Part shown: piece after piece, positions 718-31,115 of the stretch
How positions within the stretch are numbered: the first letter of the stretch is position 1
Layout: each line of letters starts with the position of its first letter
Source: a virus
Lineage: Duplodnaviria > Caudoviricetes
Length of the DNA: 31,115 nucleotides
Virus record (IMG/VR): IMGVR_UViG_3300037484_001104
Coordinates: 1 to 31,115 of that record
Direction: 5' to 3' (one strand)
Notes under the pieces: model-generated
The model's database searches: none
Seen by the model: the letters and a program-made list of their open reading frames with translations, nothing else
Told to the model about the DNA's origin: nothing
Position numbers and translations under genes: made by a program

Positions 718-853
718 GGGGCAAGCGCCACAAAAAACGCGCGCGGGGGGCTTGTGCCCGTTCACCCCTAAGAGCATGGGGTTCACTCCCCGCGCCGTTT
801 TTGTGAGAACGCGCTTGCCCCTTGCCAGGCGGCAACGAACAAGAGCGCCGCCT
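718..853. promoter_or_regulatory. Structured hairpin module A upstream of the SLOG/DprA-like gene
   Basis: 47-nt core 745-791 is 46/47 identical to 29995-30041. It is enclosed by inverted repeats 718-728/811-821 and 729-739/796-805, and followed by hairpin 827-853. Confidence 0.7.
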
Positions 854-949
854 TGTGCCTTTTTGCCATGCAGTATGGAAATTGGGCTGCGCGTTTTTTA
901 GCCCCGCCAATCTAAGCAAGCCCGCAAGCGGGCAAAGGTCAAGGTCATC

Positions 950-1474
950 ATGTCAAGTGTCTATTTCGGTGGTTCCCGCAATCTCCCCCAGTCCCCATTA
1001 GTCGGTCAGGTCGTTTCAGCCGTCATCGAGTCCGGCGCGTCTGTCCATGTTGGTTGTCAATTTGGGGCAGATCAGCAAGTCGCCACTTTTTCAGCCTGCT
1101 TTTATCCTTTGTCTCTCGTTGTTTTCGCAGTTCATGCCCGTGGCCTGGCATCATCTCATGTTCAAACCGCCGAAAATATCGGCGCGCGTGTTGTCTATTC
1201 CGCAGGTGGTCAAGGCGCGCCCATGCGTGCCCGTTATCTGCTCAGGTCCAAAGCTGCCTTTGCTGGCTGTTCTGCTGCTGTTTTCTTTGCCCCTGGTGCT
1301 GGCTCGCTAGCCGTTGCCCGCGAGGCCGTCAAGGCTGGCATCCCCGTATTCGCTTTTTGGGTGCAAGCCTATCCCCCCGCTCCCATCCCATCCACCCCCG
1401 GCCAGTGGGTGCGTTCTTCATTCGCTGGCTTTGGTTGCTGGCAGTTCCAGCCCGCCCAGGCTGGCTTAATCTAA
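950..1474 (+). CDS. SLOG-superfamily (DprA/Smf-like Rossmann fold) protein
   Basis: Motifs VYFGGSR, VGCQFGAD, RYLLRS, GSLAVAREAVKAGIPVFAF follow the SLOG/DprA pattern. Confidence 0.7.
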   Translation: MSSVYFGGSRNLPQSPLVGQVVSAVIESGASVHVGCQFGADQQVATFSACFYPLSLVVFAVHARGLASSHVQTAENIGARVVYSAGGQGAPMRARYLLRSKAAFAGCSAAVFFAPGAGSLAVAREAVKAGIPVFAFWVQAYPPAPIPSTPGQWVRSSFAGFGCWQFQPAQAGLI

Positions 1475-3082: not shown

Positions 3083-3526
3083 ATGAACACAAAGCCAATT
3101 CCCGATAATACGTTATTAGACGACCTGCACCCGGCCCGCTTCCTAAAGGTCGCAGACCTGCTGGAACGCTGGAAGGTCCAAAACGTGACCGTAGAAATTT
3201 CACGCATGACCCAGGAAGAGACCATACCCAACCCGCGCGACATCGACCCGCACACACACAAGCCAGCCGTGAAGGTTCAGCCCGTGCTTTACTTCAAGAC
3301 CAAGAGCGGCGCAGAATTCCCGCGCGGGTATCTTCTATCCGCCGCCGTGGACGTGGAGAGTCTCAAAGCATCCACCGGCGCCAGCACGGTCGGCGAACTG
3401 GTCGGAAAGAAGATCAAAATCCAGGTCGGAGAGCACAAGGGAAAGGCTGTGCTCAGAATATCGCCAACAGCACCAGAACATCCGCACCTGGAAGGATACG
3501 TAACCGACCAGAAAGTCCAGGAGTAG
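3083..3526 (+). CDS. Hypothetical phage protein, possibly ssDNA-binding or recombination-associated
   Basis: GAGG RBS before ATG 3083; HPARFLKVADL N-terminal motif and beta-rich body; function is a guess. Confidence 0.6.
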   Translation: MNTKPIPDNTLLDDLHPARFLKVADLLERWKVQNVTVEISRMTQEETIPNPRDIDPHTHKPAVKVQPVLYFKTKSGAEFPRGYLLSAAVDVESLKASTGASTVGELVGKKIKIQVGEHKGKAVLRISPTAPEHPHLEGYVTDQKVQE

Positions 3527-3733: not shown

Positions 3734-4040
3734 AGGACCGTACCGCCAGAAATGGCGAGGGTGACGTGCCCAAAAAATTTCGTTAAGCCCTATCGGGCTT
3801 CGCTTTCGCGGTCGAGGCCGAGAGCGGTTACAGTCATGCGGATGGTCTTGGCCTGGCTGACGGGCTCGGGTTTGGCTGGGCAACACCAGTAGGCACACGC
3901 CACTTAAGTGACCAGTCCTGTTTAGCGCCAGAGAGTCCCATCAAACCTGCCCATTGCCGCCCCACCCCTAGGCGGCAGAACATGGGCAGCGCCGCACCGC
4001 CCCTAGCCTTGCGGCGGGCGGCGGAACATCCCAAAAAACC

Positions 4041-4068
4041 TTGACACATTGCGCACATTGCGTATAAT
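4041..4068 (+). promoter_or_regulatory. Sigma70-type promoter of the xis-like gene (leaderless)
   Basis: TTGACA-N16-TATAAT with ATG 6 nt downstream; tandem CACATTGCG x2 covers the spacer. Confidence 0.8.
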
Positions 4069-4414: not shown

Positions 4415-4520
4415 ACGCGAAGCGGGCCACTCTAGCCAGCGGCCCGCTCCAGTACGGCCAGACGTAAAGGTGATCGTAGCACCTTAACAATCTAGCTAGT
4501 GCCCCATTCTCAGGGGTACA

Positions 4521-4555
4521 GGGTGGGCGATGGGTTTCGAACCCACAACATCTTC
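4521..4555 (-). mobile_element. attP core: 3' fragment of a tRNA, probably tRNA-His
   Basis: Minus strand GAAG-ATGTT-GTGGG-TTCGAAA-CCCAT-CGCCCAC-CC gives a variable loop, T-arm and acceptor 3' strand with C discriminator; it abuts the int stop codon. Confidence 0.8.
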
Positions 4556-5380
4556 TTATGCAGTCAAGTTTTTGACCGGCAAGTAGGGCCGGACAGCTTC
4601 CAGGCTAACTGACTGTGTATAACGCTCAACCATTCCTATCGACGACCAACGCCCTCCAAGCTGGATCAACCGGCTGGGAGCGCCGAACACCGTTGCAATA
4701 GTAGCATAGGAACGTCGGAAATCGTGAGGAGAGAGCTTGATACCTATAGCCCGACCCCACTGTTTAACAATACTCTGCAAGCCTTCCCTTGTCAACTTAC
4801 GGCCAGAGCGTGTACTCACGAACAAAGCCCCTTCGCCCGGCTTCGCCCGGCGAAGCGCGAGCCAAGCCAATATGTATTCAGTAGTCTGGTCCGAGAATAT
4901 CCCAATCCCCCACTGACCACCTTTGACAACCACTTGAAGCACATGCCGGTCAAGGTCTGTATCGGCCAACTGTAACCGGCAGACCTCAGACACGCGCAGG
5001 CCTGTATCCAACAACGTAGCCGCAAGAGCCAGATCACGCGCCCCCTTCGGGTTCGACGCATCAAACCACATTAGAAGCTCGAGCGCCTTTTCAGGAGTAA
5101 GCACCCGCTGGGGCTTCGGTCGCTGGGATTTGATCCTAGCCGATAAAGCCGGATGACTCTGGCCATGGCGCCAGCGCAGAAACTTCCGGCAAGCCGCCAC
5201 CGCAAGACACTGCTGACTATTCCCCCACCCCTGAGATTGAACCAATTCCACAAGCCCCGACGCCGTCAGACCTTGCAGGTCTCGACCAGCCAATAACCGG
5301 GCAAAGACTCTTCGATAAGAGTCCTTCGTGGCTTCGCTGTAAGCGTGCGAAGCCAGAAATTCACCTACATCCTTTTCCAT
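4556..5380 (-). CDS. int: Tyrosine recombinase/integrase
   Basis: TGLRVSE, VKGG, HDFRR, GRW, ERY give the R-K-H-R-W-Y catalytic set; GGAG RBS. Confidence 0.95.
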   Translation of the reverse strand: MEKDVGEFLASHAYSEATKDSYRRVFARLLAGRDLQGLTASGLVELVQSQGWGNSQQCLAVAACRKFLRWRHGQSHPALSARIKSQRPKPQRVLTPEKALELLMWFDASNPKGARDLALAATLLDTGLRVSEVCRLQLADTDLDRHVLQVVVKGGQWGIGIFSDQTTEYILAWLALRRAKPGEGALFVSTRSGRKLTREGLQSIVKQWGRAIGIKLSPHDFRRSYATIATVFGAPSRLIQLGGRWSSIGMVERYTQSVSLEAVRPYLPVKNLTA

Positions 5381-10762: not shown

Positions 10763-11772
10763 CACCACGTGCAGCGGACGGGCGAAAGAATACCAATAAA
10801 TCGCCGCATCCAACCGTGACGGTTGATCCCGTTATGGTGCAGCAGCCAAAGAAAGCCCACCGACGCCAGCCGAAAGGCCACCTATGACTATATCCACAAC
10901 TCTCCCAACCTACTGCCAATCTCCCGAAAACTGCGCTCACACCTGTTTTGAGAGCGAGTCACAGGACAGCAACCACGTAAGGACAATGTGCCTTTCTTGC
11001 GGCTCGCCATTGCCAAACCCGAACACCCGTGCTACACTTCCCCACGGCGGGGGACTGGCTGCCCCCCTCAGCCCGAAACCCGCCCCTTAGATCGATACTT
11101 ATTATAGGGGAGTTGACCCGGTCAACGGTCAAGCTCCCCGCATTGAGACAGGACCGCCCGGCGAACCCGGGCGGTTCGCATTTAACACATGGCCAGCACC
11201 GTCAGAAATGACGAGCATCGAAGCTCGCCATAAATAGCGATACCAGCTCAATCACTCTTGCTCAGGCGGACGGGCCGGCTCCATCGGCCCGCGAGTACGC
11301 GGGCCTTTTTGCTACCGGGGGGAGTACCCCCCGAACCCCCAACATCCCCACATCCGCACAACACCCCACATCCGTGCGCGGCCAGAACGCCAATGGTGCG
11401 GCTTCCCTCAGTCCCCCCTGCCACCCCGCCCCCCACACCCCCCACCCCGGCACACCCCCCAGCAATGTACCCATCTAGAAGTGGGGGGCAGGCGTTCTCA
11501 GGGGGGCTTCGGCTGGCTACCTTCACGAAATTGGGCGAAGAGCACCGCCGTCAATTTCGCTCAGTCGCCCAGGCCGCCCATTGGCAGGCCGCGCAGATTG
11601 CGAGCGAGTACGCTCGCCTTTGCGACGGGTGACAAACACCACCCGTCGCCCCTCTCACAGCGGCGGCCAACCCCCGCCGCTCCCGTTCGAGCACCGGCCC
11701 GCCCCCGCCAAGAACGCGGGCCGGACGTTCAAACATTCGTAGGACAAACGTACCCCCCCTTGCGCACCTACA

Positions 11773-11801
11773 TTGACAGCCTAGAACAAGTGTGCAAAAA
11801 T
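11773..11801 (+). promoter_or_regulatory. Probable late-operon promoter
   Basis: TTGACA-N17-AAAAAT with a TGn extension; degenerate GAAC-N4-GTTC box in the spacer. Confidence 0.55.
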
Positions 11802-11807
11802 CGAATT

Positions 11808-11886
11808 GGCTAGACTCGCTCCCCTTGAGAGTCTAGCCGCTTTTTTAAGGGGAGCGAGCGACAGCCGGCAGCCGGCTGTTTTTTTT
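11808..11886 (+). terminator. Attenuator-like leader: two tandem terminators plus an alternative pairing
   Basis: Stem 11808-11817/11829-11838 + T6; stem 11861-11879 + T7; 11815-11826 is complementary to 11847-11858. Confidence 0.7.
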
Positions 11887-11903
11887 ATCTGTATAAGCGG
11901 CGG

Positions 11904-12222: not shown

Positions 12223-12591
12223 ATGCCCGCCCCCCCAGGCAATACCAACGCAGTCAAACACGGCTTCTACTCCAAACGCTTCACTCGCCGCGAAAAGAAC
12301 CGCCTCGCCAAAGGCGACGACGACCTCGAAAGCGAGATCAACGCTTTACGGATCGTGGCCGACCGGATCATGCAACGGCTCGGAGAGAATGGGCTCAAGC
12401 CCATCGAAGCCGATGAGACCACAACCCAACTCAGTGAAAACGCACTCAAGACAGTCAACACCCTGGCTAATGTGATGCTCACTATCTCAACCCTGGCCCG
12501 CTCACACCAGCTCATCATCGGCAAGTACCTGCCGGTCGAGACCGCCATCATGGACGCGCTGGCCGAACTCAACGACGAAGACGGGATATAA
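12223..12591 (+). CDS. terS: Terminase small subunit
   Basis: APPGNTNAVKHGFYS N-terminus; directly upstream of terL. Confidence 0.8.
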   Translation: MPAPPGNTNAVKHGFYSKRFTRREKNRLAKGDDDLESEINALRIVADRIMQRLGENGLKPIEADETTTQLSENALKTVNTLANVMLTISTLARSHQLIIGKYLPVETAIMDALAELNDEDGI

Positions 12592-12592
12592 C

Positions 12593-14089
12593 ATGTCGAC
12601 ACTTACCCAGCGCGCCAAGACCATCCAGCGCAACCCGTACAACTTCTCACTCCACGGCGGGGGAATGGAACTCAGGCCGTATCAAGTCGAACCCATCGAG
12701 GCAATCTGGAATTCAGTTAAACACAATCTCGGTCTGACCATCGTCATTATCATCTCACGCCAGTCAGGCAAAGACGAGCTCCTCTGCCATCTCAAAGCCT
12801 ACCTGCTACACCGCTTCCAGAACAAAGACGTGGAGATCGTCGAATTCAATCCCACCTACAAACCCCAGACCATCCGCGCCATCTTCCGCTTGGAAAGCCG
12901 GATGAACACCAACGTGCTCACGCGTAACCGCTGGAAGAAGCGCTCGGACTTCATGCGCATGATCGGCCAGGCAAAGGTTAGCTTCCTATCCGGCGACGGG
13001 CAAGCCAACGTGGTCGGAGCGACTGCGTCACTCCTGCTGATCATCAACGAAGCCCAGGACATCTCGCCAACTGTGTACGACAAGAAGGCCAGCCCCATGG
13101 CCGCCAGTACCAACGCCACCAGAGTCATTGTCGGCACGGTCTGGACATCCGGCAGCCTGCTATCCCGCGAACGCCGCGCGGCGGAAGCCGCCGAGAAACT
13201 GGACGGCATCCGGCGCGTGTTCATGTACGACGCGGACGAAGTCCGCAAACACAACCCGGCCTATGGCCGCTTCGTGGACGGCGAAGTGCAGCGATTAGGG
13301 AGACAACACCCGCTCGTCAAAACGCAGTACTTCAACGAAGAGATCGACGCCGAGATCGGCATGTTCAACGCGGCGCGGCGGGCGCTTATGGTCGGTGACC
13401 GCCCGGGCACAGACCTACCCGAACCCGGTCACGCTTACGCCTTCCAGATCGACGTTGCCGGGCAGGACGAAGCGCGCATGAACCTGGACGAAAACGCGCC
13501 GCTCACCAATCCCGGACGCGATGCGCTCACGCTTTCCGTGATCGACATCGACCTGTCATCGCTCGAATTGCTTTCCTTCCCGACCTACCGGGTCGTACAC
13601 CGCCAGCCCTGGACCGGTCAGAACCACGTGGTCATGTTCGGCAAACTCAAGGCGCTAGGCGAAGTATGGAGACCGCTCTATTTCATAATCGACGCAACAG
13701 GAGTAGGGGAGGGACTGTGGGCCATGCTCGACCGCGCCTTCCCCGGTAAAGTGATTCCCATCAAGTACACCCAGCAGGCCAAGTCCGAGATCGGATACGG
13801 CTATATCGCCGTGATCGAAACCGGACGCTTCCGCGACTGCGCGCCGCAGGCACTTGTCGACTTGCAATATCTCAACATCAAAAGCGAGATCCTGCCCGGC
13901 CCAGCCAAAACCATGCGCTGGTCCGTGCCCGAAGGCACGCGCGACGACGCGACCGGCGAACTCATCCACGATGACTTCGTCATGTCCGATTCCTTAGTAG
14001 CCATTCTCGACAAGCTCGAATGGACGATCAGCCAGGAGTCGACCATCCTGCAACGGGACATACAGAAAGAAATTGACGGAGGTTATTAA
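12593..14089 (+). CDS. terL: Terminase large subunit
   Basis: LRPYQ, Walker A SRQSGKDE, Walker B LLIINEAQD, nuclease motifs IDVAG / IDATGVG / HDD. Confidence 0.93.
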   Translation: MSTLTQRAKTIQRNPYNFSLHGGGMELRPYQVEPIEAIWNSVKHNLGLTIVIIISRQSGKDELLCHLKAYLLHRFQNKDVEIVEFNPTYKPQTIRAIFRLESRMNTNVLTRNRWKKRSDFMRMIGQAKVSFLSGDGQANVVGATASLLLIINEAQDISPTVYDKKASPMAASTNATRVIVGTVWTSGSLLSRERRAAEAAEKLDGIRRVFMYDADEVRKHNPAYGRFVDGEVQRLGRQHPLVKTQYFNEEIDAEIGMFNAARRALMVGDRPGTDLPEPGHAYAFQIDVAGQDEARMNLDENAPLTNPGRDALTLSVIDIDLSSLELLSFPTYRVVHRQPWTGQNHVVMFGKLKALGEVWRPLYFIIDATGVGEGLWAMLDRAFPGKVIPIKYTQQAKSEIGYGYIAVIETGRFRDCAPQALVDLQYLNIKSEILPGPAKTMRWSVPEGTRDDATGELIHDDFVMSDSLVAILDKLEWTISQESTILQRDIQKEIDGGY

Positions 14090-16081
14090 ATGGCAAAAAT
14101 CTTCGGGCGAGAAATCCGAGTCCGCAACCCCTTCCGCGCAGCCATCGACCAGGCCGTCGAAGAACGCGTAAAGGCACGGCTCTCGAGCATGGCCGAGACT
14201 GACGATACCATCATCATCGGCACACGCACCGGGCGGGACATCTTCCGCGACCGCAACAATTGGGACCGTGCCACCATTATCAGCGAGACCTTACTCGCCT
14301 GGAGAACCAACCCGATCGCGCGGCGGATCACAGACGCCATCGTCGAATTCGTAGTAGGCGACGGCATGGCCCCGACTATCCCGCACAAGCCTACCGCCGC
14401 TTATGTTAAAGAATTCTGGGAGCATCCACTCAATAACCTGAATGAGCAAATCCCCGAATGGGTAGCCGAACAATCACGCACCGGCGACCTGTTTCTACTG
14501 TGCAGCGTGGACGCCATGGACGGGTCGATGTTCGCGCGCGCCGTGCCATCCGAACAGATCAGCGAGATACAGACCTTCGATAACGACTACCGCCAGGAAA
14601 CAGCCTACATCCAGCAGGACATCAACGCATCGCCATACGTAGCTTACGACCCACTCGACCCCGAGCAGACCCAGTTCATGTTGCACCACCCGATCAACAG
14701 GGTGGTCGGCTCGACCTTCGGTGAAGCCGACCTGACACCCGTCCTGAAATGGCTGGGTAGGCTGTCCACCTTGCTCAACGACCGGGTCATTATGAACCAC
14801 CTGCGCAACCTGATCGTGTACATCGTCAAGGTCAAAGGACTGGAAAAAAAACAGCGCGAGTTGCGCGAGCGCGAGCTCAACGCCAACCCACCCCAACCAG
14901 GTGCTATCGTCGTAAACGACGAGAGCGAAGTATGGGGCACGCTCTCCCCAAACATGCAATCCTTCGACGCCAATATGGACATCATTGCCATCAAGAAGCA
15001 CATTGCCGCAGGCATCGGGCTACCCTTGCACTACATCGCCGAGCCGGAGTCCAGCACGCGCACCACAGCGGAGGCGGCGGGCACGCCCACATTCCGCAAG
15101 TTCAAGATGCGCCAGAACAGCGTCAAACGGGCGCTGGCCTACCTATGCACCATCGCCGTGGTCAAGCGCAACCACTTCAGCAAGAAGCGCTTCCAAGCGG
15201 CCGGTATCGCCATCCGCGCCGATGACGTGACCGAGCGTGACAACTCCACGCTGGCCCTGGCCGCCGCCCGGATCGAGCCAGTCCTGGCCGACCTGTTCGA
15301 CAGGATGATGATCGACGAGCCGACCTACCTGCTTCTGTTCTACGAGATGCTGGGCAAAGATTACGACACGGACGGCACGCAGCCTAAAGGCATCCGGCGC
15401 AAAGTAAAAGAGCCGGAAGGCACAACCGGCGAACCAGATCCGGGTGAACCGGATGATACCAACACCGAGGAGAGCCAGAACGCCGCGCCGACGTTCAACA
15501 TCACACAACCGGCGATCCAGGTCCACATGCCCAAACAGGCCGCACCGGTTATCAACATCAAGAACCAGATCCCAGAGCAAAACGCGCCGGTCGTGAACGT
15601 CACCAATCAAATCCCGGAGCAGACCGCGCCGGTTGTCAACGTGACGAACCAGGTCGAGACCCCGGAAGTCACAGTACAAAACAACATCCCCCAGCAGGCT
15701 GCGCCTGTGGTGAATGTAACGAACGAAGTCGAGACACCAGAAGTCAACATCACGAACCAAGTCGAGACACCGGACGTGCATGTCACGAACCAGGTCCCCG
15801 AGCAGGCTGCGCCTGTCGTAAACGTCACCAACCAGGTCGAAACGCCGGAAGTCAATGTCACGAACCAAGTCGAGACACCGGACGTGCATGTCACGAACCA
15901 GGTCCCCGAGCAGGCTGCGCCTGTCGTGAACGTCCAAGTCGAAGCGCCAGAAGTGAACGTGACAAACCAGGTTCCTAAGCAGGCCACACCTATCGTGAAT
16001 GTGGTTAACCAGGTCGAGCCAGCGCCGCCACAAGCGCTGGACGTTGAATACGTCAAGCCGAAAAGGAAAGGCAAGAAATAA
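14090..16081 (+). CDS. Portal protein with repetitive C-terminal extension
   Basis: Follows terL; NPIARRI...FVVGDG, GDLF, IAAGIGLP.HY patterns. Confidence 0.85.
   Translation: MAKIFGREIRVRNPFRAAIDQAVEERVKARLSSMAETDDTIIIGTRTGRDIFRDRNNWDRATIISETLLAWRTNPIARRITDAIVEFVVGDGMAPTIPHKPTAAYVKEFWEHPLNNLNEQIPEWVAEQSRTGDLFLLCSVDAMDGSMFARAVPSEQISEIQTFDNDYRQETAYIQQDINASPYVAYDPLDPEQTQFMLHHPINRVVGSTFGEADLTPVLKWLGRLSTLLNDRVIMNHLRNLIVYIVKVKGLEKKQRELRERELNANPPQPGAIVVNDESEVWGTLSPNMQSFDANMDIIAIKKHIAAGIGLPLHYIAEPESSTRTTAEAAGTPTFRKFKMRQNSVKRALAYLCTIAVVKRNHFSKKRFQAAGIAIRADDVTERDNSTLALAAARIEPVLADLFDRMMIDEPTYLLLFYEMLGKDYDTDGTQPKGIRRKVKEPEGTTGEPDPGEPDDTNTEESQNAAPTFNITQPAIQVHMPKQAAPVINIKNQIPEQNAPVVNVTNQIPEQTAPVVNVTNQVETPEVTVQNNIPQQAAPVVNVTNEVETPEVNITNQVETPDVHVTNQVPEQAAPVVNVTNQVETPEVNVTNQVETPDVHVTNQVPEQAAPVVNVQVEAPEVNVTNQVPKQATPIVNVVNQVEPAPPQALDVEYVKPKRKGKK
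15488..16015 (+). repeat. About 15 P-x-V-N-V-T-N-Q coding repeats in the portal C-terminus
   Basis: Visible in the translation; near-exact DNA duplication at a 108-bp offset (15751 vs 15859). Confidence 0.9.
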
Positions 16082-28775: not shown

Positions 28776-28804
28776 AGCATAGCAGATAAGGTGTGACTTG
28801 TCAA
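28776..28804 (-). promoter_or_regulatory. Sigma70-type promoter of the MTase gene
   Basis: Minus strand TTGACA-N17-TATGCT with a TGn extension; a GTCAC site lies in the spacer. Confidence 0.75.
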
Positions 28805-29040
28805 ATGCAGTGACAAACCAGTCGGTCACGGCGGTCAATGCGTCACACTTTCGCCGGTCGGCTCCATCGGCCCGCGATTACGCGGGCCTTTTTCCTACCC
28901 CGCACATCCGTGCGGGGCTTACAGCGGCTCCGCCGCAACATCCAACCCCGACGCCCTTCCCGTTTCCAAGCGAAAGCCAGCGCGCAGACGCCCACCCGTG
29001 GGCGCGCGCTTCCCGGGTCCATGACTGGAGGAGTTGGCCG

Positions 29041-29307: not shown

Positions 29308-29625
29308 CTATCCAATTTCCAGCGGCATCCATCCAGTAAACAAAACCCGAAGCCGTTCCACAAGGCCAAGCCGACGAGCCTTTGGAAGAAGTGCTAAATG
29401 TCTAACATCAGCTTCACCAACGTGAAGAGAAACGCGGACACGTTCAACCCCTTCTAACCCATCTAGTTGAGACGTTCGGCGGACTTCAGCAGAGTAAATC
29501 TTACCTACCCTGAGATTACGAAACAGTTCATACCCCATCTCACGCTCATAGCCTTCGATCACATGCTGAAAATGATCAGCGGACATTCCAAAAGGCCGTT
29601 CCAATTCAAAATTTAGATTGTCCAT
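29308..29625 (-). CDS. Hypothetical protein
   Basis: AAGGAGACCCTGCCA-ATG RBS motif. Confidence 0.75.
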   Translation of the reverse strand: MDNLNFELERPFGMSADHFQHVIEGYEREMGYELFRNLRVGKIYSAEVRRTSQLDGLEGVERVRVSLHVGEADVRHLALLPKARRLGLVERLRVLFTGWMPLEIG

Positions 29626-29985
29626 TGGCAGGGTCTCCTTTCCACAAATTCTACCACCGACGTTCGCACTCGCGTGGCCGCTCGCACTCAGACCCTTCGC
29701 GCGTAGGGCGCGCTCAGCGGAACCGCGCGTAAAGCGCGGGCGATCCCACCTGCCCCGCAGTGATGGCAGGCGGGGTAAACATCCAAGCGCGGACCAACGC
29801 CGCGCGCCCGCCTGAGAGCGGGATACTCAGCGCTTCGCTTATCGGCTTTTTGCAGGCCGCACGCCGGGACAAGCACCCCGGCCTAAACGCGTCCTGTGTC
29901 CCACCCTTCCGGCCCGCGACTCGCGGGCCGCTGGCTCTCCCCCCGCTTTTGGGACATTTTACACGGCGGGCAAGGCAACCCCGCT

Positions 29986-30080
29986 AGGGCAATGGGGGGG
30001 CTTGTGCCCGTTCACCCCTAAGAACATGGGGTTCACTCCCCCATTGCCCTGCGAGGCGGCGCAAAGAAAAAGAGCGCGCC
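29986..30080. promoter_or_regulatory. Structured hairpin module B
   Basis: Same 47-nt core as module A, enclosed by a different stem (AGGGCAATGG/CCATTGCCCT), followed by hairpin 30058-30080. Confidence 0.7.
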
Positions 30081-30177
30081 GGCCTTGCCTTCGCCGTGTC
30101 ATGCCCAAAGTGCAGCGGGCGGCTTCGCCCCGCATCATTCTCTCGTTTGGGCTAAAGCCCAGAAAGGTCAGTGTGCC

Positions 30178-30333
30178 ATGTCTTTAGTCTCAGTTCGTTC
30201 CCGTTTCGTTCGCGGTCACCGTGTCGTCCGTCAGGGCGCGTCAGTTCGTTGCTTTGCGTTTTGGGCTTGCCCACGCAGTGGCTGGCGGCCAGGTCAGCCG
30301 TCGCGTTATTTCAAGGGCAGCAAGGTCATTTAG
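30178..30333 (+). CDS. Small Arg-rich, A-poor protein, 51 aa
   Basis: AAAGGTCA leader shared with the 950 gene; stop is followed directly by a terminator. Confidence 0.55.
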   Translation: MSLVSVRSRFVRGHRVVRQGASVRCFAFWACPRSGWRPGQPSRYFKGSKVI

Positions 30334-30344
30334 GTTAGGCAATC

Positions 30345-30368
30345 AGCCCCTGCAAAGGGGCTTTTTTT
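30345..30368 (+). terminator. Intrinsic terminator
   Basis: AGCCCCT-GCAA-AGGGGCT followed by TTTTTT. Confidence 0.85.
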
Positions 30369-30413
30369 ATGGGGTCCGGCCTGGTCCCGGGTTCGCTCCG
30401 ACGAGCTCCGCTC

Positions 30414-30744
30414 AGTCTCTTCGCGCGTAGGGCGCGCTCAGCGGGGAGTTCGCTCCGGACATCGCTCACAACATCCCGGCTCGCGCCGCACATCCGACTG
30501 GCTTGCGCCGCGGTACGCCCACCGCGAACGGCGCAAGCAAACTTCGTTTCGGCAAAGCCCGCCGAGTCTCTTCGCGCGTAGGGCGCGCTCAGCGGGGAGT
30601 TCGCTCCGGACGTCGCTCACAACATCCCGGCTCGCGCCGCACATCCGACTGGCTTGCGCCGCGGTACGCCCACCGCGAACGGCGCAAGCAAACTTCGTTT
30701 CGGCAAAGCCCGCCGAGTCTCTTCGCGCGTAGGGCGCGCTCAGC
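30414..30744. repeat. 151-bp tandem repeat, about 2.2 copies
   Basis: AGTCTCTTCGCGCGTAGG starts at 30414, 30565 and 30716; one A/G difference seen between the full copies. Confidence 0.92.
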
Positions 30745-30966
30745 CAGAACCGCGCATAAAGCGCGGGCGATCCCCTAAACAGCAAAGCTCGCCATAAAGG
30801 CTCGCAGATCTATAAAACATCCAAGCGCAGGCGCGGCCTACGGCCCGCCAGCGCGGGACATAGATGGTGGCACCATCAAAAAAAGCGGTGCCACCATCTG
30901 AGCCGACCGGTCGACCATCGCCAGCATTAGCGGTAGCACCATGCTCGCCTAAAGGCTTCGACATGG

Positions 30967-31092
30967 TGCTACCGCTCTTTATGGCGATGCGCCCGTCGGC
31001 TCAGTCGGCGCGAGTACGCGCCGGGCAAACAAGCGGGCGTTCCCCCCTGCGCCCCCCAACGACCGGCGCCGGGACTTTCGCAGGCCCACCCC
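30967..31092. repeat. Terminal direct repeat, copy 2
   Basis: Identical to 1-126. Confidence 0.95.
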
Positions 31093-31115
31093 CCCCCCCC
31101 CCCCCCGGGGAAGCC

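Follow-up and report, generated by a model that had tools for sequence, protein, structure and literature searches.

A conserved branched fold ahead of the early genes of terminase-packaged phages, probably a promoter for single-stranded DNA

Main

Many phages of one terminase-packaged group carry, directly ahead of their early operon, a module that, on comparative sequence evidence, is a real and conserved element, probably of the single-stranded DNA (ssDNA) type and most likely a promoter. Sequence comparison indicates that the conserved object is a branched fold of about 225 nt, of which a 47-nt core forms a swappable tip. A preliminary description had drawn attention to this core, which it found duplicated in long hairpins, and had suggested that the hairpins could be ssDNA promoters; covarying stems, template-strand mini-hairpins, a promoter-like position and a downstream gene for a protein of predicted DprA fold now speak for that suggestion, whereas a canonical −10 element is lacking.

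A group of small temperate phages

The window analysed here (the whole 31,115-nt stretch of viral record IMGVR_UViG_3300037484_001104) is a circular 30,966-bp phage genome whose positions 1–133 are repeated at 30967–31099. It encodes TerS/TerL, a portal protein, a protease–capsid fusion, a tyrosine integrase, an excisionase-like protein and a methylase. The window and its relatives are small temperate HK97-fold phages, probably with an Anaerolineae host, a host assignment that follows from a homologue of open reading frame (ORF) 950 on an Anaerolineales genome contig and from terminases, 36–50% identical, in 70 of 401 Anaerolineae genomes. These distant terminase homologues (in G211, G137, G256 and others; loci L159–L178) nearly always number one per genome, and in 10 inspected chromosomes they often stood alone or with portal and capsid genes set apart, with no tailed-versus-tailless contrast among the ten; such loci are possibly domesticated head modules resembling gene transfer agents (GTAs). 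Annotated phages gave no match to the group, one related record of which, with repeated ends, is only 17.7 kb long.

Among the structural proteins, one of 227 aa resembles SU10-type adaptors (12% of a cluster, with one cluster commonest in Chloroflexota), while the likeness to baseplate hubs of a short homologue of an 863-aa protein, with low shared-feature counts, is a lead only; the single-sequence fold of this hub protein reached a pLDDT of 34.5. None of 30 related records contained the tape-measure family PF10145, and none of 17 contained any of the relaxase/Rep families PF03432, PF08751 and PF02486, for which the controls did match. Neither kind of protein appeared when 51 window ORFs, a further 30 ORFs and 40 representatives of clusters were scanned against Pfam (9 of the 44 listed representatives were omitted as likely antisense shadows), and the PF01446 profile matched nothing anywhere, controls included.

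Elsewhere in the window, a stretch resembling a tRNA 3′ end at 4500–4560 adjoins the integrase gene, has weak matches in 32 of 101 Anaerolineae genomes and is likely attP, and the portal ORF bears a long repetitive C-terminal extension (15540–16030).

A branched fold with a replaceable tip

As first described, the 47-nt core is present twice (46 of 47 positions identical), within different closing stems and 159 and 137 nt ahead of the ATGs at 950 and 30178; the genome being circular, the copies lie 1,716 nt (~1.7 kb) apart. When up to 3 mismatches were allowed, a 22-nt piece of the core had 2 matches, and none in 100 shuffles. The hairpins originally drawn around the core are real, but they were drawn too short and centred on what is a replaceable tip, the conserved parts being the basal stems and loops (Table 1). 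Folded as minus-strand DNA, 690–916 and 29945–30150 gave z-scores of −5.0 and −8.4, respectively, and 0 of 200 shuffles were as stable. A further hairpin at 3947–3990, at first taken for a looser relative, is genuine and has the same AGAAC bulge but is neither a third copy nor a homologue; its letters in common with the core hold other structural roles (loop versus stem), a model of the module does not match there, and it precedes a perfect double-stranded DNA (dsDNA) promoter at 4041–4068. Separately, a reading of the core as a LexA box was rejected on its spacing of 5, not the 4 of what we take to be the LexA box.

Table 1. Coordinates of the two modules and neighbouring features in the window
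Feature	Position	Strand	Description
Hairpin-rich region, continuation	1–690	−	Upstream of module A
Module A	690–916	−	Template-strand branched fold, ~225 nt: three nested stems, side hairpin, large template loop
Stem 2	703–710 with 864–871		Compensatory versions in copy B, L071 and G416
Stem 3	718–728 with 811–821		Holds the invariant CAAG/CTTG duplex; A/T-tract stem above
47-nt core	745–791		Variable apical cassette: 4-bp mini hairpin and tip hairpin; replaced in relatives
AGAAC bulge	806–810		Within 718–821
−35-like TTGCCC	815–820		Within stem 3; likeness drawn from the family's dsDNA promoters
Side hairpin	828–852		Recurring 13-nt purine-rich loop, also at 638–660 and near 30058–30080
Unpaired template loop	872–900	−	Between stems 1 and 2; invariant AA (sense) at 879–880; T6 tract
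GCGCAGC mini-hairpin	886–892	−	Inside the template loop
RBS-like stretch	934–949	+	Before the ATG; conserved in relatives
A-poor gene	950–1474	+	Opens the early operon; 174 aa, 13% A; DprA/SLOG fold predicted
Hairpin-rich, largely non-coding region	29600–30966	−	Runs across the circle junction into 1–690
Module B	29945–30150	−	Second member of the fold family; 47-nt tip at 29995–30041
A-poor 51-codon ORF	30178–30333	+	Behind module B
Terminator-like hairpin	30345–30368		After the 51-codon ORF

The hairpin-rich region also contains a 151-nt tandem duplication (30392–30744), at the equivalent place of which another genome, G425, has a 43-nt tandem array with mini-hairpins. A second non-coding hairpin cluster, at 11200–11900 and 28780–28960, lies just before the holin-like and terS genes and has GA(G/T)TAC-loop hairpins in common with the early region (18 on the sense strand versus 3 in ten genomes); it is possibly an extra priming site or a packaging signal.

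Conservation among relatives

ORF 950 has 254 close homologues, and clustering at 50% gave 381 representatives. Locus searches yielded 73 loci, of which 43 were kept along with the window and 30 dropped as duplicates or for too little upstream DNA; in the searched relatives, contig ends gather within ~5 kb of the DprA-like gene, which may reflect assembly breaks at hairpins, strain variation or true genome ends. Eleven modules could be aligned. Their tips vary freely (different ones occur in L009, L013, L030, L036 and others), and a population variant in run X1 has 63 nt of the tip region replaced by 90 nt. Across 10 sequences, both partners have changed in 15 of 26 pairs, compared with 6.7 ± 1.6 after shuffling and 3–4 with partners slid, counts that are not independent since the structure was derived from the sequences on which it was scored and the loci are related. 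The CAAG/CTTG duplex is unchanged in 10 of 10 modules while the pairs flanking it covary, and the template loop contains a minus-strand GCGCAGC mini-hairpin in 9 of the 11.

The module model matched copy B (E = 2.9e-6, partly through the shared tip), five further sites among the gene-selected loci (E up to 0.003) and two capsid-selected genomes outside its training set, G416 (E = 1.5e-18) and G411. G416 is without the DprA-like gene, its module preceding a different small gene, and a module recognized by eye in G422 also stands before a different small gene, so that the module is tied to the start of the early operon and not to one particular gene. Neither module nor gene was found in G418 (whose ends repeat), G421 or G413. 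The model returned nothing in 151 Anaerolineae genomes (a search run without a positive control), in 24 chance loci or in 2 plasmid loci; its strand preference exists by construction and was excluded from the evidence. Pattern searches added no new module: an exact search for the core in IMG/VR gave 0 matches, a gapped core pattern 54 loci (2 real modules in already known contigs and 52 chance hits) and a loop-hairpin pattern 1 contig, already known.

The fold probably belongs to the template strand

We take the stability of the GCGNAGC triloop to be specific to DNA. Within 1.5 kb upstream of the 44 loci, the minus strand has 89 copies of this motif where local shuffles have 21.7, and the plus strand has 17; minus exceeds plus at 33 loci, with the reverse at 5 and ties at 6. 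The excess recurred in 8 genomes found through their capsid or terminase (27 on the minus strand against 3.4 ± 1.9; 3 on the plus strand), two of which, G417 and G423, showed none. It is local, extending from about −2 to +0.5 kb, whereas the window as a whole is even (21 versus 20), as are unrelated viral loci (0.41 versus 0.41 per kb). AAGAGC is strand-biased as well (96 versus 15). The sense strand shows no preference for loops of RNA type (UNCG, 3; GNRA, 12 sense versus 24 antisense); CCGAAGG was left out of the mini-hairpin count because its complement can be a UUCG loop.

Other measures did not separate the strands: their folding energies are nearly equal, and a wobble/mismatch test (G·T/A·C and tandem G·A) had only 35 single mismatches in all, for which reason tandem G·A in the core was dropped as a strand marker. 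The strand call therefore rests on the loop statistics, from which the fold likely belongs to the template (minus) strand as DNA. GCGNAGC is an unusually stable DNA mini-hairpin at G4, ssiA and N4 sites, according to the part of PMC13037366 available to us, which compares RNA for the tetraloop form only.

The module takes the place of a promoter

A fixed rule applied to the 44 loci found a canonical promoter within 480 nt at 14, an adjacent module at 14, both at 0 and neither at 16, several of the last being visible misses of the rule; the relatedness of the loci means that the Fisher p value for this exclusion, 0.0015, overstates the case. The module thus occupies the slot of the ordinary −35/−10 promoter from which 14 relatives express the same A-poor gene, and an RBS and then the ATG follow 60–100 nt further on.

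The preliminary description could identify no clear −35 and −10 boxes in the core; below the core, stem 3 contains an invariant −35-like duplex (CTTGCN) resembling the TTGCNT of the family's dsDNA promoters. By eye, neither arm has a canonical −10 at 17 nt from this hexamer (no TAnnnT at 17), and the module was therefore not filed as Frpo. A second conserved hexamer, YATGCY, lies 11–12 nt from the −35-like one in the short arm and is replaced in L071. In this same locus, which is without the side hairpin, AA follows 30 nt after the hexamer, the usual distance of a start site, and in the other modules it follows after 31–35 nt once the side hairpin is removed, a spacing that is no more than suggestive of a start site.

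An adenine-poor gene with a DprA-like product

The predicted structure of the ORF 950 product (pLDDT 96) has its best structural matches among DprA proteins (Z 14.5–15.4; rmsd 2.7–4.8 over about 150 residues). Other SLOG proteins are close (Z 13.2–14.1), with MoCo-carrier proteins and ShosA within about 1–2 Z, and the fold consequently does not fix the function. The product shares this predicted fold with the DprA/SLOG superfamily (DprA, ShosA, LOG, ThsA) but differs in its sequence (14–18% identity, with no Pfam and no PDB sequence match), its single domain and its A-poor gene. The model is compatible with a possible anti-defence, nucleotide-binding role.

At 38 loci the DprA-like gene contains 0.2–18% A, against about 27% elsewhere, and the template strand is accordingly poor in thymine. 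The deficit extends to silent sites (A 0.11 versus 0.20; T 0.30 versus 0.16) and to the protein, which avoids residues needing an A (20% versus 44%). It is also present where a dsDNA promoter serves, and genome skew leaves the methylase gene on the reverse strand similarly short of A (14%). The idea that a low A content weakens RNA:DNA hybrids finds only partial support: the effect is about 0.07 kcal/mol per step in the window, and hybrids of the GC-rich homologues are strong. In one relative (L025:10001–10480), a DprA-like coding stretch has 1 adenine in 480 nt.

A 147-aa protein conserved at 3083–3526 and in the early operons of relatives has no family match and is, we presume, possibly SSB-like; genes for SWIM, J-domain-like and DUF3560 proteins and an orphan methylase lie near it, a content resembling that of plasmid leading regions. 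Five plasmids typed as non-mobilizable carry distant ORF 950 homologues, and the two inspected (L131 and L132) contain nearly A-free gene blocks, with mini-hairpins in L132 (9 minus, 0 plus) and none in L131. L132, a 25.7-kb Methylocaldum plasmid in which the DprA-like ORF is unannotated, has a CRISPR-like array directly upstream of its hairpin region and nearly adenine-free ORFs (12400–15500).

Comparison with known systems

The closest parallels are the Frpo/ssp and ssi promoters of F and IncI leading regions, which likewise place a long GC-rich template-strand fold ahead of early establishment-type genes, occur several per region and have an A/T tract above a −35-like duplex; transcripts from Frpo are also able to prime, according to the portions available of PMC11541004 and bioRxiv 10.64898/2026.01.09.698686. 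Set against Frpo's description rather than its sequences, the module differs in having no canonical −10 at 17 bp; it is also branched, with a large template loop and mini-hairpin, and sits in terminase-packaged phages in which no relaxase was found rather than in a relaxase-transferred leading region. Matches to 'Frpo' in the available part of PMC13532299 refer to a phage name, not the promoter.

The primase sites of G4 and RSF1010 ssiA are also ssDNA hairpins with G-A mini-hairpin loops, as far as the available part of PMC13037366 describes them, but the module sits in a promoter slot before an RBS and no phage primase gene was found. The promoters of the N4 virion RNA polymerase share the GNA-triloop hairpin in the template strand and the setting in a dsDNA, terminase-packaged phage, yet the N4 hairpin has 5 bp and is served by a 3,500-aa enzyme of the phage's own, compared with a fold of about 225 nt and a longest ORF of 1,393 aa in ten genomes of this group. 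For ssDNA entry from a phage-like head, the Rhodobacter GTA offers a precedent, its capsid-delivered DNA passing through ComEC/ComF (available part of PMC12378983); GTAs, however, are not self-propagating and are without an ssDNA promoter, and ComEC entry of the phages here is only inferred. In the literature searched, with subscription journals mostly uncovered, there was no description of this module or phage group, or of ssDNA promoters in dsDNA phages.

Discussion

We consider it probable that the fold, in the template strand when that strand is single-stranded, acts as a promoter for the host RNA polymerase, with a transcript that could also prime the missing strand. Once the phage DNA is single-stranded, its template strand would fold into the branched structure and rebuild a duplex −35-like site (CTTGCN), from which polymerase would start in the unpaired template loop near the predicted start at 879–880. 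The transcript could additionally prime synthesis of the missing strand, the DprA-like protein may protect or handle the incoming strand, and second-strand synthesis would remove the fold and switch the promoter off.

An alternative that we regard as unlikely is a primase-dependent ssi site of the G4ori/ssiA type, which would start second-strand synthesis only and leave the gene to be transcribed from elsewhere. The template loop reads TTA or TTT at its invariant site in most modules, which we take to recall Firmicute primase triplets; the modules have no −10, related hairpins also occur at 11.2–11.9 kb, away from early genes, and mini-hairpins of this kind are present at the G4 origin and in ssiA (PMC13037366, available part). 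Against such a site, the module alternates with a dsDNA promoter, leads into an RBS and ATG 60–100 nt further on and preserves its −35-like duplex unchanged. A structured RNA, either antisense or leading the early operon at its 5′ end, we hold to be very improbable: both strands fold about equally with RNA parameters, covariation alone cannot tell RNA from DNA, and sense CCTTCGG, readable as a UUCG loop, is enriched (34 versus 5.4), but the antisense strand alone is enriched in the GCGNAGC motif, in all four of its variants, no promoter-like site was listed on the sense strand upstream of the fold, and Rfam gave no credible match (its 2 matches, at E = 0.5 and 0.94, lie outside the modules and do not reach the gathering score).

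It is also quite improbable that the module was captured from a plasmid leading region and survives as a relic, serving the phage at most as a weak dsDNA promoter or an N4-like extruded cruciform. The same kind of gene block on plasmids and the dsDNA promoters of many relatives would agree with such an origin, as would the GCGGAGC hairpin promoter of the dsDNA phage N4 (PMC13037366, available part). Against it, compensatory change maintains the pairing among phages whose capsid proteins are only about 45–55% identical, the imperfect, branched arms lie 200 nt from each other, and no virion RNA polymerase gene was found.

For the promoter reading, the single strand could come from several sources. 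Virion DNA imported via the host competence channel is a plausible if tentative one; conjugative carriage of the prophage or its mobilization through an oriT acting in trans is possible though doubtful, as are, to the same degree, replication or resection intermediates, and some other source seems unlikely. GTA DNA enters by ComEC/ComF and needs DprA (PMC12378983, available part), and entry of this type would fit phages in which no tail tube was found. Against ComEC entry, transformation is said to cut DNA into few-kb pieces (PMC12282955, available part), the mini-hairpin signal spans only about 2.5 kb, in 3 of 27 loci the early block runs opposite to the virion genes, and three relatives (G418, G421 and G413) showed neither module nor gene; ComEC itself, present in 113 of 121 genomes of the class, does not discriminate, being present in 10 of 14 controls too. 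More speculatively, and with considerable doubt, we propose self-propagating HK97-fold phages that have a head, an adaptor and a hub but lack a tail tube and tape measure, and that would hand their genome to ComEC so that one strand enters, and boot from ssDNA via branched promoters, an A-poor gene for a DprA-like protein and second-strand synthesis from RNA primers; plasmids that carry this gene block but no relaxase may spread likewise.

In the literature consulted, the host-polymerase ssDNA promoters are those of conjugative elements, which deliver their DNA as a single strand. A conserved ssDNA-type module in terminase-packaged phages would imply a single-stranded stage, which the standard tailed-phage cycle lacks, and may mark a phage entry route through the competence channel. 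The module makes sharp predictions of strand, start site and stem dependence, and would represent a new promoter architecture without a canonical −10, while a one-strand GCGNAGC excess together with adenine-poor genes may provide a genomic signature for elements that travel as ssDNA.
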